A stretch of DNA of 64,000 nucleotides from a phage. Position 1 is the first letter of the stretch. Each line of letters opens with the position of its first letter. The notes beneath the pieces were generated by a model. That model made no database searches. It was not told the DNA's origin and was given only the letters and a program-made list of their open reading frames with translations. The position numbers and the translations under genes are program-made. This document shows positions 1,013 through 18,825 of this stretch, piece by piece. The stretch is taken from the sequence record PV467749.1; one strand, 5' to 3'.

Positions 1013-2122
1013 ATGTTACCTTTTGTAAGAATGGTTAAGTACGGGAATATTGCACCAGTACCGAAAAAAATAAAGAAAGTTATAGCAGGATATGATAATT
1101 TATATGTACTATATGGTGATGGTTCGCTATATGGTTGTGGAATCAATAACTATCAACAGTTAAATATTGATGGAACTGCTACACAAAATAATTGGGTACT
1201 AATTACCAATGGTGTTAGTAATGCATGGGCTGGTGGATACAATATTTTATATTTGAAAGAAGATAAATTTATAATGCACGGAACTAATGTCTCATTAGGT
1301 TTAGGAAATACTACAATTCCATTAGGTGGAGTAGATGTAACTTCTTCATTCCCAGATATCTCTAATATTAAAATGATATCCATTGGTTTTGATTCAATGC
1401 ACTATGTTAGTGCTGATGGTACAACTGTATATGGAAGAGGTATGAACACAAATGGTTCTGTTGGTTCAGGTAGTACTTACTCACAGAGTACTTTCACTTC
1501 AGTACTGAATAATGGAACTAATCAGGTTATTGATATATTTGGTAACGTTAATAATACAGTGCTTCTAACATCGAATGGTGAGCTTCGAGCATGTGGGACA
1601 AGTGCTTATGGTTCTATAGGAAATGAAACTGGTAAGTGGACATCGTTTGGTTTAAAATTATCTGGCACTAAAATAATGGGTGGTAATGGGTATAGTACGC
1701 TTGCATATACAAATTCGGGAATGTACCACTCAGGGTGGCAGTTAAATGGGGAACTAGGAAATGGTTTAAATACTAACGTACAGGTATATCCATTTCAATT
1801 TAACTCTAAAACGATAGATAGCAAGATAGATAAAATTGCCAAATCATCATCTGGGTCATATGTTAACATGTACTCAACAACAGAAGGAAAGATATATACG
1901 ACAGGTTCGTTTGGTAAAAACGGGTCAACTACTGCATTGAATTTGTTCACCAATACATTAACACTTATAAATTACAATCCAGATACCGCCTCGTTGTATA
2001 CGTGCACAAACTTCAGTGTTGTGTATGATGGTAATGAAACTATTGCTGTAAGTGGTAGTCCTACATATGTACCAGGGGGCGTTGCCGCTAATAGATGGAC
2101 TACAATTCCATTACCCAAGTAA
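1013..2122 (+). CDS. RCC1-like repeat beta-propeller protein, array member 2 (N-term MLPFVRMVKYGNIAP)
   Basis: Start moved from track ORF 878 to ATG 1013 (conserved MLPF start, RBS AAGGGAGG 5 nt upstream; upstream part of ORF translates the terminator/promoter); RCC1-like repeats. Confidence 0.85.
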   Translation: MLPFVRMVKYGNIAPVPKKIKKVIAGYDNLYVLYGDGSLYGCGINNYQQLNIDGTATQNNWVLITNGVSNAWAGGYNILYLKEDKFIMHGTNVSLGLGNTTIPLGGVDVTSSFPDISNIKMISIGFDSMHYVSADGTTVYGRGMNTNGSVGSGSTYSQSTFTSVLNNGTNQVIDIFGNVNNTVLLTSNGELRACGTSAYGSIGNETGKWTSFGLKLSGTKIMGGNGYSTLAYTNSGMYHSGWQLNGELGNGLNTNVQVYPFQFNSKTIDSKIDKIAKSSSGSYVNMYSTTEGKIYTTGSFGKNGSTTALNLFTNTLTLINYNPDTASLYTCTNFSVVYDGNETIAVSGSPTYVPGGVAANRWTTIPLPK

Positions 2123-2129
2123 TACTATG

Positions 2130-2155
2130 CCAGTACTTGATACTGGCTTTTTTTT
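2130..2155 (+). terminator. Intrinsic terminator: hairpin CCAGTACTTGATACTGG + T9
   Basis: Inverted repeat CCAGTA/TACTGG then CTTTTTTTTT, immediately after stop 2120-2122. Confidence 0.65.
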
Positions 2156-2161
2156 GATTAA

Positions 2162-2190
2162 ATATAGTATAATGAATAAAGGAGGGAATT
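2162..2190 (+). promoter_or_regulatory. Cassette promoter-like element (TATAAT 2168-2173) + RBS AAAGGAGGG (2178-2186)
   Basis: Conserved intercistronic block. Confidence 0.5.
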
Positions 2191-3318
2191 ATGTTACCTT
2201 TTGTTAGAATGTTTGATTATGGGAATATAATCGAAGTTAATAATATAAAGAAAAGTGTTGTTAGTTACACTCTTGAAATGTTTCTAATGCAAGATGGCAC
2301 TGTATATGCACACGGTGAAGATTCAAACTATAATGCGGGTTTAAGTACACAGTTTGTATCGTTAGGAGCAGTTCAACAAATCACAACTGAAGTTGATGAC
2401 TTATGGTTAGGATCGTTTTCCGTTGTTATTAAAGGTGATAAAATATATGGTTCAGGTTCAACATATGCATTCACGAATTCTAATACTTTCCAACAAGGAT
2501 ATACTGACTGGGCTGTGTATTTCACTGGTATAGATGTTACCCAAATTAAAAAAATGTTATGTGGTTATACAGCATTTATATTAATGAAAGACGGAACACT
2601 TTATGGAAGAGGATGGAATCGAAGTGGTGCATTAGGTTTAGGACATAAAAATTATGTTTCAGCGTGGACTGTACTTGACACTAATGTGGATAATATATTT
2701 GGCGGTTACCTTGGCGATACATTGTTTAAGATTAAAAACGATGGAACTGTATATGGTTCAGGTTCAAATAACAGCTTTCAAGTTAAAGCAACATCGGGTG
2801 ATGCAACCACATTTGTTCCATTGTTTGATGATATATCTTATGATATAAAATGCAGTTTTGTTTCTGGTGTTGGTTTTGTAATGATAACATCTGATAATAA
2901 AATATATACAACTGGAACTACTTTTGCTGGTAGTGGTGCACATAGTAAAGTTTTTGATGTTGGTTTTACTATAGGTGATATGAGTAATATATATCATCCT
3001 GATTCGTTGGACTATTCGACTAGTGTTGTATTTTTAATTAATGCAGATACAAACAAACTAATAGCAACTGGGCATACCCCATTTACGGGAAGTAGTTCAA
3101 GTTCCCTTCCATATTTTACAGCATTTCAAGAATTCAATTTTACATCGTTCAATTCGAATACACGATATAGTGGGTCTTTATACTGGAATACATTTTACGA
3201 AGGTAATAATGTATGGATGAATGGATATAATCCTGAAAATACGGGTGGAAAGAATTTCTCATTGTGTTCAATACCGTTAGATACTATTATTACTAAGCAA
3301 ATTGATTTACCTTTTTGA
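2191..3318 (+). CDS. RCC1-like repeat beta-propeller protein, array member 3 (N-term MLPFVRMFDYGN)
   Basis: 375 aa; conserved N-terminal dodecapeptide; blade motifs e.g. LYGRGWNRSGALGLGH, VYGSGSNNSFQ. Confidence 0.85.
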   Translation: MLPFVRMFDYGNIIEVNNIKKSVVSYTLEMFLMQDGTVYAHGEDSNYNAGLSTQFVSLGAVQQITTEVDDLWLGSFSVVIKGDKIYGSGSTYAFTNSNTFQQGYTDWAVYFTGIDVTQIKKMLCGYTAFILMKDGTLYGRGWNRSGALGLGHKNYVSAWTVLDTNVDNIFGGYLGDTLFKIKNDGTVYGSGSNNSFQVKATSGDATTFVPLFDDISYDIKCSFVSGVGFVMITSDNKIYTTGTTFAGSGAHSKVFDVGFTIGDMSNIYHPDSLDYSTSVVFLINADTNKLIATGHTPFTGSSSSSLPYFTAFQEFNFTSFNSNTRYSGSLYWNTFYEGNNVWMNGYNPENTGGKNFSLCSIPLDTIITKQIDLPF

Positions 3319-16939: not shown

Positions 16940-16946
16940 AATAATG

Positions 16947-16972
16947 CCAGTACTCAAGTACTGGCATTTCTT
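16947..16972. terminator. Bidirectional terminator hairpin CCAGTACTCAAGTACTGG between convergent genes
   Basis: Perfect palindrome flanked by A/T runs; lies between stop of + gene (16937-16939) and stop of - gene (16973). Confidence 0.55.
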
Positions 16973-17623
16973 TTACATATTATATAATGTGAATGCAGTC
17001 ACTTTACCAGTTGTTGTTAGTTCATTATAAAGATACTCCAAGATTCTCGCACACTCTAAGTATATCTCGATATCATCATGAATAAGTGAGTACTGAAATA
17101 GCTGTTCTTCAGGTAATTTGTATTGACTTCCTTTTAATGAATTGAGAATATCTTTCACATCATCAAGTACTGGGTAAAGTACGAAATCTTCATCATATTT
17201 TGAAGCAATAAATTCAAATCCACCACCATCAGTACTAGATATACCAATCAGTACTTTATCAATCAAGTTAATGTTTATATAACGGTTGTGATTTGGGTGA
17301 ATTGAAATCTCAAACATACGAGTACTGTTACAATCAACATCAATATACAAATATACATCATTGAATTTATAAGTTAAACAACCGTACTCAAGAAAATCAG
17401 AACAAATAATTGATGAGTTTTTTCTTGTCTCTGCGTAATGCATCTTGATATTCTTTTCACGCATAAGTAATTCGAACTTTGCACTAAACTTGCCACCAGC
17501 AAGATAGTTAGTATTAGGACGTTTGTAACTTGCAACTGGTCGGTGGGATGATGTAAAGTATTTTTTTGTGAATCGTTTCTGTTTAGTGAAATATTCTTGA
17601 TAGAACTTACTTCTTTTATTCAT
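16973..17623 (-). CDS. Hypothetical protein, EExFQxS C-terminal-motif family
   Basis: 216 aa, opposite orientation, inserted between array members 14 and 15; basic N-terminus; C-terminal ..EEQLFQYSLIHDD.. motif shared with at least 12 other minus-strand proteins. Confidence 0.7.
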   Translation of the reverse strand: MNKRSKFYQEYFTKQKRFTKKYFTSSHRPVASYKRPNTNYLAGGKFSAKFELLMREKNIKMHYAETRKNSSIICSDFLEYGCLTYKFNDVYLYIDVDCNSTRMFEISIHPNHNRYININLIDKVLIGISSTDGGGFEFIASKYDEDFVLYPVLDDVKDILNSLKGSQYKLPEEQLFQYSLIHDDIEIYLECARILEYLYNELTTTGKVTAFTLYNM

Positions 17624-17700
17624 GAGTACCTCAATTAAATCGCTGTAAAATTGTACATTATAAAATGATTAAATAAAGTATAACACAAGGAGATTTTATC

Positions 17701-18825
17701 ATGTTACCTTTCGTATTGTTATTTGATTATGGGAACGAAAAACAAGAAAGTTCTTATGATGTTAGTGTATATGGAAACAATAACTACATTTTAAATAAAC
17801 AAACTGGAAACCTTTTTGCATCCGGTGCTGCGGCATTCATGGGTGATAACACAGTTAAGTATTATATTACCCAAATAGAATCAAATGTTCATAGCTGTGA
17901 GATAGGTTTCCTATCATCATGGATAATTAAGAAGGACAAAACTGTTTTCATTTTAGGAAACAAAAGCAGTATAGGATTAACTGGTTCGACAACATCATGG
18001 TTCGAAATTACAAATTTATTTTCTGCTGTTCCTGAAATATGGGACAACCTATTTGAATGTAAAGTTCAATTGGGATATAACTGTATACGTGTTATGACAC
18101 CACTAGGATCAATCTATGCGATTGGTACAAACACTTATGGTGCATTGGGTACTGGTACTACATCCTCATCAACTTCGTTCGTTAAAAGTGGTGCTGTGGA
18201 TGCTGTACGCATGGAATCAACAGAACGTTCAGTGTTCTATCAAAACAGTTCTGGACAATGGTTTGGATGTGGTGATAACACATATGGTATACTAGGTCTA
18301 GGAACTACCGCGAGTCGTGTAAACTCATACACCGCACCAGTATGGACTAATGCAGAAGCTGTTAGCTTCTCTAACCGTGGGATCATATACAGCCTCAATG
18401 GTACTCTATACTCATGTGGTGACAAAGTTAATGGTCAGCTAGGGGATGGATATACACAAAGCATAGACGCTGCCAGGAGCACACCATACACCATAGGAAC
18501 CGCATTCCAAATTGGTAAGGCAATAACATCAGCTACACAAGCATCAGCCAACGTATTCATTGGTAAAGATAATAAGTTCTATGGTACTGGTAGTATTGCT
18601 GCTGGTATAAATGGTAGTACTAGTGCTGCATTAAGTAAAGTTACTGCGTTATCAGCAGCACTACCACCTGACATTACATACAATGATATTATAACATTTA
18701 ATACAGGGACCGTAACTTTTATTCAAGCAAAAGGACAACTATATTATGTTGGTAGAAGAACTTACATAGATAATAGTTCAGACGTTACCACACAGTTCAG
18801 TGTAATTGGTGGCTTAGATAATTAA
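17701..18825 (+). CDS. RCC1-like repeat beta-propeller protein, array member 15 (N-term MLPFVLLFDYGN)
   Basis: 374 aa; RBS AAGGAG 17687-17692; variant N-terminus; motifs IYAIGTNTYGALGTG, WFGCGDNTYGILGLG, LYSCGDKVNGQLGDG. Confidence 0.85.
   Translation: MLPFVLLFDYGNEKQESSYDVSVYGNNNYILNKQTGNLFASGAAAFMGDNTVKYYITQIESNVHSCEIGFLSSWIIKKDKTVFILGNKSSIGLTGSTTSWFEITNLFSAVPEIWDNLFECKVQLGYNCIRVMTPLGSIYAIGTNTYGALGTGTTSSSTSFVKSGAVDAVRMESTERSVFYQNSSGQWFGCGDNTYGILGLGTTASRVNSYTAPVWTNAEAVSFSNRGIIYSLNGTLYSCGDKVNGQLGDGYTQSIDAARSTPYTIGTAFQIGKAITSATQASANVFIGKDNKFYGTGSIAAGINGSTSAALSKVTALSAALPPDITYNDIITFNTGTVTFIQAKGQLYYVGRRTYIDNSSDVTTQFSVIGGLDN

Follow-up and report, generated by a model that had tools for sequence, protein, structure and literature searches.

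Fourteen genes of an array in PV467749.1, an Asteriusvirus-like jumbo E. coli phage (PBECO4/121Q/phAPEC6 group), start with the same 12-residue peptide, which is probably a modular and flexible virion-docking tag on exchangeable binding heads, carried in a DNA cassette that enables gene swaps. The distribution of the motif MLPF(V/A)R(M/L)(F/V)(D/K)(Y/F)GN was analyzed by a six-frame search of the window, i.e. the whole 64 kb stretch of DNA. Chance expectation for such a motif is close to zero. We obtained 14 matches, all on the + strand and all at ORF starts between 1013 and 17736 (their ATGs are the first positions of the leaders given below), and none elsewhere in the 64 kb, so that the invariant dodecapeptide claimed in the preliminary description is confirmed. 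The array genes encode RCC1-like seven-bladed beta-propellers, whose bodies share 17-25% pairwise identity outside the leader. Some 15 neighbouring proteins with very different bodies thus carry one N-terminal peptide. Mean pairwise identity among members is 85% over the first 36 nt (+1..+36) versus 39% over the next 36 (+37..+72), in agreement with the DNA-level conservation also reported there. In addition to what had been described, conservation reaches about 75 nt upstream of the ATG in 10-11 members. This upstream block consists of a GC-rich hairpin with a T-run, then the TAAATATAGTATAAT motif, then an AAGGAGG ribosome-binding site (RBS). The features are as follows:

25..939, +: member 1, 3' part only (window edge); RCC1-like propeller (Pfam RCC1/RCC1_2/WD40_RLD); its full-length relative P0149 begins MLPFVRMIKYGN
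948..1012, +: cassette before member 2; terminator hairpin 948-967 and T-run, TAAATATAGTATAAT 982-996, AAGGAGG RBS
1013..2122, +: member 2, RCC1-like; leader 1013-1048 MLPFVRMVKYGN, hybrid flavour
2129..2190, +: cassette before member 3; hairpin 2129-2147, motif 2159-2173, RBS
2191..3318, +: member 3, seven-bladed RCC1-like propeller from residue ~19 (Pfam, AlphaFold, Foldseek); leader 2191-2226 MLPFVRMFDYGN
3326..3388, +: cassette before member 4; hairpin 3326-3344, motif 3357-3371, RBS
3389..4510, +: member 4; leader 3389-3424 MLPFVRMFDYGN
4515..4581, +: cassette before member 5; hairpin 4515-4538, motif 4550-4564, RBS
4582..5763, +: member 5; leader 4582-4617 MLPFVRMFDYGN
5766..5837, +: diverged cassette before member 6; hairpin 5766-5795, motif TAAATACATTATAAT 5802-5816
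5838..6968, +: member 6; leader 5838-5873 MLPFVRMFDYGN
6979..8181, +: member 7, without upstream cassette, adjoining member 6; leader 6979-7014 MLPFARMVKFGN
8190..9299, +: member 8, without upstream cassette, 8 nt past the member 7 stop; leader 8190-8225 MLPFVRLFDYGN
9306..9369, +: cassette before member 9; hairpin 9306-9324, motif 9338-9352, RBS
9370..10539, +: member 9; leader 9370-9405 MLPFARMVKYGN
10547..10612, +: cassette before member 10; hairpin 10547-10565, motif 10581-10595, RBS
10613..11792, +: member 10; leader 10613-10648 MLPFVRLFDYGN, then IAP
11797..11863, +: cassette before member 11; hairpin 11797-11822, motif 11832-11846, RBS
11864..13042, +: member 11; leader 11864-11899 MLPFVRMFDYGN
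13047..13112, +: cassette before member 12; hairpin 13047-13069, motif 13082-13096, RBS
13113..14288, +: member 12; leader 13113-13148 MLPFARMVKYGN
14304..14367, +: cassette before member 13; imperfect hairpin, motif 14336-14350, RBS
14368..15717, +: member 13, 449 aa, atypical; leader 14368-14403 MLPFVRMFDYGN; no Pfam match, weak match to phrog_4219
15724..15787, +: cassette before member 14; hairpin 15724-15742, motif 15757-15771, RBS
15788..16939, +: member 14; leader 15788-15823 MLPFARMVKYGN
16943..16968, unstranded: hairpin between member 14 and the 3' end of the reverse-strand gene that follows
16973-17623, -: gene between members 14 and 15
17670..17700, +: diverged promoter-like motif TAAATAAAGTATAAC and RBS before member 15
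17701..18825, +: member 15, RCC1-like; leader 17701-17736 MLPFVLLFDYGN
18830..18856, unstranded: terminator-like hairpin closing the array

Two leader flavours had been distinguished. Both exist, but four assignments need correction: member 1 is cut by the window edge and can be read only through its relative P0149, member 2 is a hybrid and not a plain type, member 15 bears MLPFVLLFDYGN, and member 10 is not an ordinary member. In the latter the leader is present in an ORF of 59 codons, from which the body ORF (10716-11792) is split off by a 1-nt frameshift near 10735-10745; it is a probable pseudogene, and the split state is also found in WPEC3. Treating the flavours as distinct classes is not supported: the flavour on an orthologous body differs from phage to phage, a sign of concerted evolution, and the flavours are therefore interchangeable variants homogenised within each genome. 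Across phages the general consensus is M-(L/I)-P-F-x-R-(M/I)-h-x-Y-G-N, followed by a short Pro-rich linker.

The upstream sequences were examined for promoter signals. TAAATAYNNTATAWT occurs 12 times versus 0.12 expected, 11 of these occurrences being in the array and one upstream of a virion structural gene at 47334. The cassette promoter has a TAAATA core without a -35 element, and sigma-70-type promoter matches are not enriched. The CBB paper reported a gp55-like sigma factor and, ahead of structural genes, an ATAAATA motif, and we infer that the cassette promoter is a late one. The 36 nt encoding the tag form, in this genus, the 3' end of a repeat of about 110 bp composed of terminator hairpin, putative late-type promoter, RBS and leader, which makes each gene a self-contained, putatively late transcription unit. 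Megablast comparison with four related phages placed 25 of 30 HSP ends within -90..+45 of a leader ATG, an interval representing 9.8% of the region, in genomes that are not independent and with HSPs that inherently run through conserved cassettes. The 3' ends of the HSPs cluster at +31..+43. Genes gained, lost or reordered from one phage to another likewise have their breaks at the cassette. The recombination-homology role suggested earlier for the conserved 5' DNA is thus supported, alongside a role at the protein level. Homologous recombination between cassettes would add, delete, reorder or swap whole genes, and would also homogenise the leader within a genome.

In four independent published virion proteomes (phAPEC6, JP4, GAP32 and CBB), leader proteins with several different folds were detected. 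All eight of the phAPEC6 virion proteins gp003, 005, 006, 007, 009, 010, 549 and 551 (PMC7247149) bear the leader, as do JP4_581 and JP4_577 in JP4 virions, and GAP32_001 and CBB_552 were found in virions (PMC5259590); CBB_537, 548, 549, 551, 552 and 553 carry the annotation 'structural protein'. Unique peptides per protein are few (1-5), so that abundant late proteins may have co-purified adventitiously.

The leader is found on at least five unrelated cargo domains, and 13-17 paralogues per genome share it. It is associated with Kelch propellers in Hallingskeid, Turkey3, EJP2 and CBB, with Laminin_G_3 above the Pfam cut-off in CBB_548 and CBB_551, with phrog_6011 ('virion structural protein') and with Gly_rich_2 proteins; CBB has eight leader genes and no RCC1 genes. 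Glycine-rich homologues in other phage groups have different N-termini (MIELL.., MLEML..), the leader being present only on the Rak2-like ones. One cargo has a tail-fibre-tip fold (TNF-like plus glycine-rich), and there the leader occupies the position of the docking module in a homologous tail fibre. A PVP-SE1 homologue of the glycine-rich cargo is located among replication genes, not tail genes, which speaks against the docking reading. The AlphaFold model of member 3 (pLDDT 88.6) has UVR8, RCC1 and HERC2 as best Foldseek matches. In this RCC1-like model and in a glycine-rich one the leader has a pLDDT below 50, is devoid of secondary structure and is predicted to be disordered outside the fold, although such low values may only mean that the alignment is shallow or that a partner is missing.

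Is the peptide itself conserved, or only its DNA? Conservation at the nucleotide level alone (recombination homology or translation-initiation context), with a functionless peptide, would agree with the contiguity of leader and non-coding cassette in the window, with breakpoints at the cassette and with a leader pS (0.383, codons 2-12) below that of the bodies (0.665). Yet leader pN is only 0.110, compared to 0.603 in the bodies, and falls well short of pS in all the genomes analysed (Munch: pN 0.122, pS 0.596; Hallingskeid: pN 0.114, pS 0.589). Munch, Hallingskeid and fHe-Yen9-04 retain the peptide despite saturated synonymous sites and the absence of the cassette from most members, and one further late virion gene, preceded by a promoter of this type, starts without the leader. 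The comparison of codons 1-12 proposed in the preliminary description, made here on codons 2-12, thus finds synonymous sites clearly less conserved than nonsynonymous ones (pS 0.38 vs pN 0.11). Judging from these substitution patterns the leader is under purifying selection at the amino-acid level, and the nucleotide-only explanation, already largely refuted by them, is highly improbable. Even less credible is an integral propeller strand conserved for folding (a 'velcro' closure similar to the hYGxN in which an RCC1 blade ends): the (L/V)Y.xGxN motif recurring in the blades is echoed by FDYGN and VKYGN, but the AlphaFold propeller closes without residues 1-16, left unstructured at pLDDT below 50, and the leader also occurs on folds other than propellers (Laminin_G_3, TNF-like plus glycine-rich).

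For a peptide selected as protein, a T4-type capsid-targeting sequence is an unlikely candidate. It would send the proteins to the prohead scaffold, so that they end up in the head interior (inner body) and leave it together with the DNA, acting as diversifying anti-defence internal proteins; removal by the prohead protease would be optional. This scheme fits divergent, virion-associated proteins of a hypervariable locus that begin with a short invariant tag, a T4-type prohead protease is present (gp227c), and phAPEC6 has an inner body for which its authors suggested the RCC1-like proteins. However, no conserved (L/I)xE is found in or just past the leader, position 9 being K, D, E, Q, N or T and the residues past N12 being variable. 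The cargoes (rigid propellers of 25-45 kDa, lectin folds, a tail-fibre-tip fold) are typical external binding modules, for which passage through a tail tube is unlikely. MS coverage per protein is low, yet the inner body, whose reported size of 91 x 18 nm gives a rough estimate of about 20 MDa, would need abundant proteins. The cleavable T4-type signal previously envisaged is thus not supported, whereas the broader proposal of a shared targeting or docking peptide is supported by selection, cargo diversity, predicted disorder and virion presence. It is also rather doubtful that the leader is a tag for a non-virion partner (phage chaperone or assembly factor, modifying enzyme, degradation system), with virion presence secondary. 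A short, disordered, invariant peptide under protein-level selection would suit any binding partner, but the four virion proteomes, the docking-module position in the homologous tail fibre and the phage-lineage specificity of the tag, as for a structural docking site, argue against it.

As a virion-docking tag, the leader would be used by Asteriusvirus, Mimasvirus (CBB, GAP32), Eneladusvirus and Munch-like jumbo phages to load ligand-binding modules into the virion, in a changing set of RCC1 and Kelch propellers, ConA-like lectin domains and a TNF-like plus glycine-rich fibre-tip domain. The modules most likely attach to a single shared site on the particle exterior and act as accessory adhesins. 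The tag itself would cause incorporation of the leader proteins, which would be located externally and probably function in adhesion.

The seven-bladed fold and the RCC1 repeat signatures are shared with eukaryotic RCC1, UVR8, HERC2 RLD and RPGR, but the N-terminal leader is lacking in the cellular RCC1-like proteins, and leader-less matches to the profile are confined to its repeats. The GenBank names 'DNA condensation protein' and 'regulator of chromosome condensation' are name transfers; a Ran-GEF or chromatin function is not supported. N-terminal anchors are known for receptor-binding proteins, as in tailspike head-binding domains, the branched systems of G7C, CBA120 and Klebsiella phages, and the attachment domain of T2/S16 gp38. 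The T4 capsid-targeting sequence is MKTYQEFIAE, to which the array leader has no sequence similarity. Pam3 gp24 has N-terminal docking helices (PMC9608196). Unlike these receptor-binding-protein anchors, the array tag has only 12 residues and no folded anchor domain, and is common to 13-17 paralogues per genome; unlike trimeric fibres and spikes, its cargoes are mostly monomer-type propellers. The T4 system, from a 1994 study cited in PMC3012670, is similar in that unrelated, fast-diversifying virion proteins share a conserved N-terminal tag, some 10-12 residues long, and in its plastic locus with conserved 5' sequences usable as recombination homology. It differs by a cleavable signal, the array leader having no (L/I)xE protease site, and by small basic internal proteins instead of large external-type binding folds. 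The promoter-early stem-loop (PeSL) cassettes of T4-type phages (Arbiol et al. 2010, PMC2839356; Comeau et al. 2014, PMC4122927) are likewise small repeated promoter and terminator units flanking non-essential genes in hyperplastic regions, with indel and replacement junctions between close relatives falling in the cassettes. In contrast to the strong early sigma-70 promoter of PeSL, the array cassette has a promoter of late type, its order is terminator then promoter, and it extends into the coding sequence, so that it also carries a protein tag.

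The window carries a tandem array of leader genes, i.e. genes whose products begin with the dodecapeptide MLPF(V/A)R(M/L)(F/V)(D/K)(Y/F)GN (the leader) followed by a body. The array and its surroundings comprise:

25-18825, + strand: array of 15 genes, labelled 'regulator of chromosome condensation' or 'DNA condensation protein' in relatives
10613-11792, + strand: member 10, with leader and upstream cassette intact and a 1-nt frameshift near 10735-10745, after codon about 42, leaving a 59-codon ORF and a body ORF (10716-11792)
16973-17623, - strand: 216-aa gene of phrog_34359 (unknown function) between members 14 and 15, adjoining a hairpin at 16943-16968
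18862-21301, - strand: seven hydrophobic small ORFs of 104-123 aa, immediately past the array

Megablast of the region 1000-19000 gave matches in 37 genomes of jumbo coliphages and Salmonella phages, 320-386 kb in size, including WPEC3, CMSTMSU, EJP2, phAPEC6, 121Q and PBECO4 of the genus Asteriusvirus. Among these 37 genomes the best single cover is at most 49%, and the matches are fragmented into many pieces. A six-frame search found the leader pattern MLPF.. 14 times, always at the start of an ORF, from 1013 to 17701, and did not find it outside the array in the whole 64-kb window. The two leader flavours previously recognized, an FDYGN type and a VKYGN type, are both present, with four members to be corrected: member 1 is incomplete at the window edge, member 2 is a hybrid with V at position 5 together with VKYGN, member 10 is frameshifted, and in member 15 VLL replaces VRM. 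The conservation described for the first 36 nt is also real (85% nucleotide identity at +1..+36, 39% over the next 36 nt), and the bodies of the array are pairwise 17-25% identical. The frameshift of member 10 is inherited rather than a random read error, since WPEC3 has the same state; this member is either a pseudogene or dependent on frameshifting. The CMSTMSU record (MH494197, 'UNVERIFIED_ORG') has an array rich in truncated leader ORFs of 16-190 codons, which look like sequencing or assembly frameshift errors, not biology. The run of small ORFs is syntenic with 'membrane protein' clusters beside the leader-gene arrays of CBB, where the annotation likens the cluster genes to GAP32 membrane proteins, and of fHe-Yen9-04. 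It looks like a second paralogous family tied to the array.

The comparison of synonymous and nonsynonymous sites proposed in the preliminary description was run using Nei-Gojobori counts, and the leader pN proved to lie far below pS.

Synonymous (pS) and nonsynonymous (pN) values
Window, leader codons 2-12: pS 0.383, pN 0.110
Window, aligned bodies: pS 0.665, pN 0.603
Munch, leader: pS 0.596, pN 0.122
Hallingskeid, leader: pS 0.589, pN 0.114

The peptide is kept in other genera, as MIPF(A/T)RILxYGN on 12 genes of Salmonella phage Munch, MIPF(A/S/T)RMI(Q/K)YGN on 10 genes of Erwinia phage Hallingskeid and MLPF(P/S)IIS.. on 5 genes of Yersinia phage fHe-Yen9-04. In the leaders of these three phages synonymous sites are saturated, and the cassette is missing upstream of most of their leader genes, since these overlap or adjoin the gene before. 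The persistence of the peptide under such conditions therefore indicates purifying selection on the leader at the amino-acid level. Leader pS is lower in Asteriusvirus (0.38 in the window, 0.19 in phAPEC6), which points to further homogenisation of the DNA in this genus. The logo of 166 distinct N-termini reads M-[LI]-P-F-[AVG]-R-[MI]-[LVFI]-x-Y-G-N-[IV]-[AV]-P and is partly preset by the search pattern. An exhaustive profile search gave 586 matches. Generic RCC1 repeats, which match the profile at positions 14-40, contaminate this list, so the figure does not equal the number of leader proteins. Only 4 short fragments came back from a word-indexed protein search in which the first 40 residues served as query.

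The leader is borne by five types of cargo; CBB, with eight leader genes, lacks RCC1 genes altogether.

Leader-bearing proteins by cargo
Kelch propellers: Hallingskeid 5185; Turkey3 12256 and 13277; EJP2 8373; CBB_550, CBB_552 and CBB_554
Laminin_G_3 / ConA-like: CBB_548 and CBB_551 (47.8 and 47.9 bits; cut-off 27.6)
phrog_6011 'virion structural protein': Hallingskeid 15534 and Munch 11962 (scanned); CBB_549, CBB_553 and GAP32_002 (placed in the group by record annotation, without a scan)
Glycine-rich proteins: Munch 7422 (Pfam Gly_rich_2); phAPEC6 7325 and Turkey3 16569 (Asteriusvirus homologues of the Munch member)

AlphaFold leaves the leader unstructured in two unrelated folds, with pLDDT <50 at residues 1-16 of an RCC1 member and at residues 1-4 and 6-10 of the glycine-rich protein P0167. 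A propeller-closing ('velcro') strand had been suggested by the likeness of FDYGN to the blade motif; it was rejected because residues 1-16 are disordered in the model and the leader also occurs on non-propeller folds. Glycine-rich proteins of this family are common among other phages and have other N-termini there (MIELL.., MLEML..), the leader being confined to Rak2-like members. Rak2 and K64-1 themselves returned no match in either of two cargo searches. A lineage-specific N-terminus is here joined to a C-terminal domain common to other lineages, as in the docking modules of receptor-binding proteins. When searched by sequence against the PDB, the glycine-rich and Laminin_G_3 cargoes gave nothing significant. 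Outside Rak2-like phages, the TNF-like plus glycine-rich homologues (our handles P0171-P0260) share a short conserved N-terminus, M-(I/L)-E-(L/M/A)-(L/M), which could play the part of the address tag in other phage lineages. One homologue of the glycine-rich cargo, gene 19 of PVP-SE1 (L012:14790-15632 in our phage records), sits among replication genes.

The RCC1-like cargo itself was characterized in the window. Array genes are matched by Pfam RCC1, RCC1_2 and RCC1-like domain families: of the 9 array members scanned, 7 score above the curated cut-off of PF00415 or PF13540, and PF25390 gives E-values of 1e-11 to 1e-26, yet falls short of the 150 bits set as its cut-off. No Pfam family matches member 13. 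Together these families supply the repeat signature of an RCC1-like domain. A seven-bladed beta-propeller, as expected of this domain, is predicted for the member at 2191-3318 (AlphaFold pLDDT 88.6, pTM 0.88), and the best Foldseek matches of the model are UVR8, the HERC2 RLD, RPGR and RCC1 (E 1e-17 to 1e-13; TM about 0.6-0.7). The 'chromosome condensation' annotation, which stands for guanine-nucleotide exchange or chromatin binding, is a transfer of name supported by the fold alone. Most RCC1-like members also share a semi-conserved C-terminus, (F/I)(T/x)(K/x)(I/L)(D/P)LP(F/K), e.g. at 3289-3318, 4481-4510 and 9270-9299. In the AlphaFold model of an RCC1-like member the last strand is formed by residues 368-370, and the C-terminal motif probably serves as the closing strand of the propeller.

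Conservation extends about 75 nt upstream of the leader in 10-11 members. This stretch contains a GC-rich hairpin (GCCAGTAC..GTACTGGC) with a T-run, the motif TAAATATAGTATAAT and an AAGGAGG ribosome-binding site, and forms with the leader-coding DNA what we call the cassette. Terminator-like sites number 25 against 7.3 expected. For the promoter-like motif TAAATATAGTATAAT, 12 instances of the degenerate pattern were counted where 0.12 would be expected. The array shows no enrichment in sigma-70-type promoter matches (80 vs 93 expected). The eleven cassettes repeat a promoter-like motif and a stem-loop terminator, as do PeSL cassettes, which lie between non-essential genes. The strong early sigma-70-type promoter of PeSL cassettes was not found; the motif has a TAAATA core, then TATAAT, lacks a -35 element and resembles the late ATAAATA/TATAAATA class. 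Its sole copy outside the array (TAAATACGTTATAAT; window 47297-48491, + strand) and a related arrangement lie upstream of two virion structural genes:

47334-48491, + strand: 385-aa phrog_10468 virion structural protein without leader, the only substantial + strand gene within a long minus-strand stretch
27517-29028, minus strand: virion structural gene, preceded by a hairpin, a T-run, then TATAAATATAG

In CBB and GAP32, structural genes are preceded by an ATAAATA motif according to the authors of the CBB paper, who liken it to the T4 late promoter TATAAATA and note a gp55-like sigma factor (PMC5259590). The array is likely to be expressed late, given the cassette motif, its single outside copy and the related arrangement at virion structural genes, and the late-type motif of the CBB paper.

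Window 1-19500 was compared with WPEC3, phAPEC6, EJP2 and Turkey3 by megablast. HSP ends show a clear pattern at the cassettes: 25 of the 30 internal ends fall between -90 and +45 relative to a leader ATG, positions that together make up 9.8% of the region. Among the 3' ends there is a cluster at +31..+43, and the 5' ends mostly lie at -74..-60. The binomial p of 6e-21 is not to be taken literally, as the genomes are akin to each other and HSPs naturally run through the conserved cassette. Where close relatives differ by indels or replacements, the junctions fall within cassettes, a further property of PeSL-like systems. WPEC3 lacks members 3 and 4, the gap being bounded by two cassette copies, has five other genes in place of members 11 and 12, and carries member 14 at another array position. 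These examples and the HSP ends together imply that the units of exchange are whole genes bounded by cassette and leader. Recombination homology, which had been put forward as an alternative ground for the conserved DNA, accordingly stands beside the protein-level role. Orthologous bodies can differ in flavour: the window gene at 8190 is of the FDYGN type, its phAPEC6 counterpart, like all phAPEC6 members, of the VKYGN type, and its EJP2 counterpart has LEYGN. The flavours cannot be functional classes or subfamily labels, as orthologous bodies differ in flavour between phages; the leaders undergo concerted evolution within a genome.

Published proteomes place leader proteins in virions. The phAPEC6 virion proteome of 62 proteins lists gp003, 005, 006, 007, 009, 010, 549 and 551, with 1-5 unique peptides each, labelled 'DNA condensation' or hypothetical (PMC7247149 Table 1), and all eight begin with the leader. 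So do JP4_581 and JP4_577, both included in the LC-MS/MS table of JP4 (JP4 supplement). GAP32_001 (RCC1-like) and CBB_552 (Kelch) were identified in virions (CBB paper, PMC5259590); GAP32_001 begins MLPFSRIIQYGN. CBB_537, 548, 549, 551, 552 and 553 are annotated 'structural protein' by the CBB authors. The literature thus makes the bearers virion components, as a receptor-binding-protein docking module requires. The leader is not mentioned in the phAPEC6, JP4 or CBB papers, and leader strings were absent from the papers of the searchable library. The phAPEC6 record (L004, MK817115) carries gp550 and gp551 twice, at both ends, and contains intact leader ORFs at 2434-3540, 6063-7250 and 7325-8056 (two RCC1-like, one glycine-rich) that are unannotated or partly annotated. 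These three were probably missing from the database behind the published proteome and thus not detectable there.

The preliminary description had compared the leader to a targeting or processing signal. A short conserved N-terminal peptide on unrelated virion proteins is indeed shared with T4-type capsid targeting. A terminal (L/I)xE site followed by cleavage is not: the prohead-protease site was sought in and after the leader, and neither a conserved (L/I)xE nor a conserved Glu was found, position 9 being K, D, E, Q, N or T and residues 13-20 variable. A cleavable T4-type signal is not supported on this ground, and selection, modularity and virion association speak for a targeting or docking tag. 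The best-supported reading is a flexible N-terminal address tag that carries interchangeable binding modules into the virion. As to where it docks, the RCC1-like proteins may have an inner-body role, as the phAPEC6 authors suggest (PMC7247149); an external site is most likely in view of the cargo types, which are propellers, lectin folds and a tail-fibre-tip fold.

This reading has a second part: in Asteriusvirus the tag-coding DNA, fused to the cassette of terminator, late promoter and ribosome-binding site, would drive modular gene exchange. A wider picture is possible, even if we lean slightly against it: the leader would serve Rak2-like jumbo phages as a universal plug-in address tag, mounting any domain that bears it on a common particle site, perhaps the 'hairy' fibres of phAPEC6 and CBB, and tag, promoter and terminator would form a mobile cassette moving adhesin genes by homologous recombination. 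If so, a regulatory element and a protein-sorting signal would make a single recombining unit, amounting to natural cassette exchange of host-range modules, with one short repeat serving regulation, assembly and gene exchange together, and the hairy appendages so far unexplained in phAPEC6 and CBB could be connected with the array genes. Were the cargoes binding heads, the current annotation would mislead, the 10-17 genes per phage being exchangeable virion-displayed heads and not DNA-condensing proteins, which would account for the retention of so many 'chromosome condensation' genes by these jumbo phages. Should the 12-residue tag suffice for virion incorporation, it would offer a compact means to display or load cargo on jumbo phages.

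The system apparently combines known kinds in a new form that is so far undescribed. The T4 capsid-targeting sequence and IP locus (PMC3012670) are among the closest systems, and the leader differs from them in having no protease site. With receptor-binding proteins it shares the usual pattern of a lineage-specific anchor and a horizontally exchanged binding domain, but their N-terminal anchors are folded domains whereas the leader has only 12 residues. PeSL cassettes (PMC2839356, PMC4122927) resemble those of the array in their promoter and terminator repeats with exchange junctions; their promoter is early, whereas the one found here is late-type.
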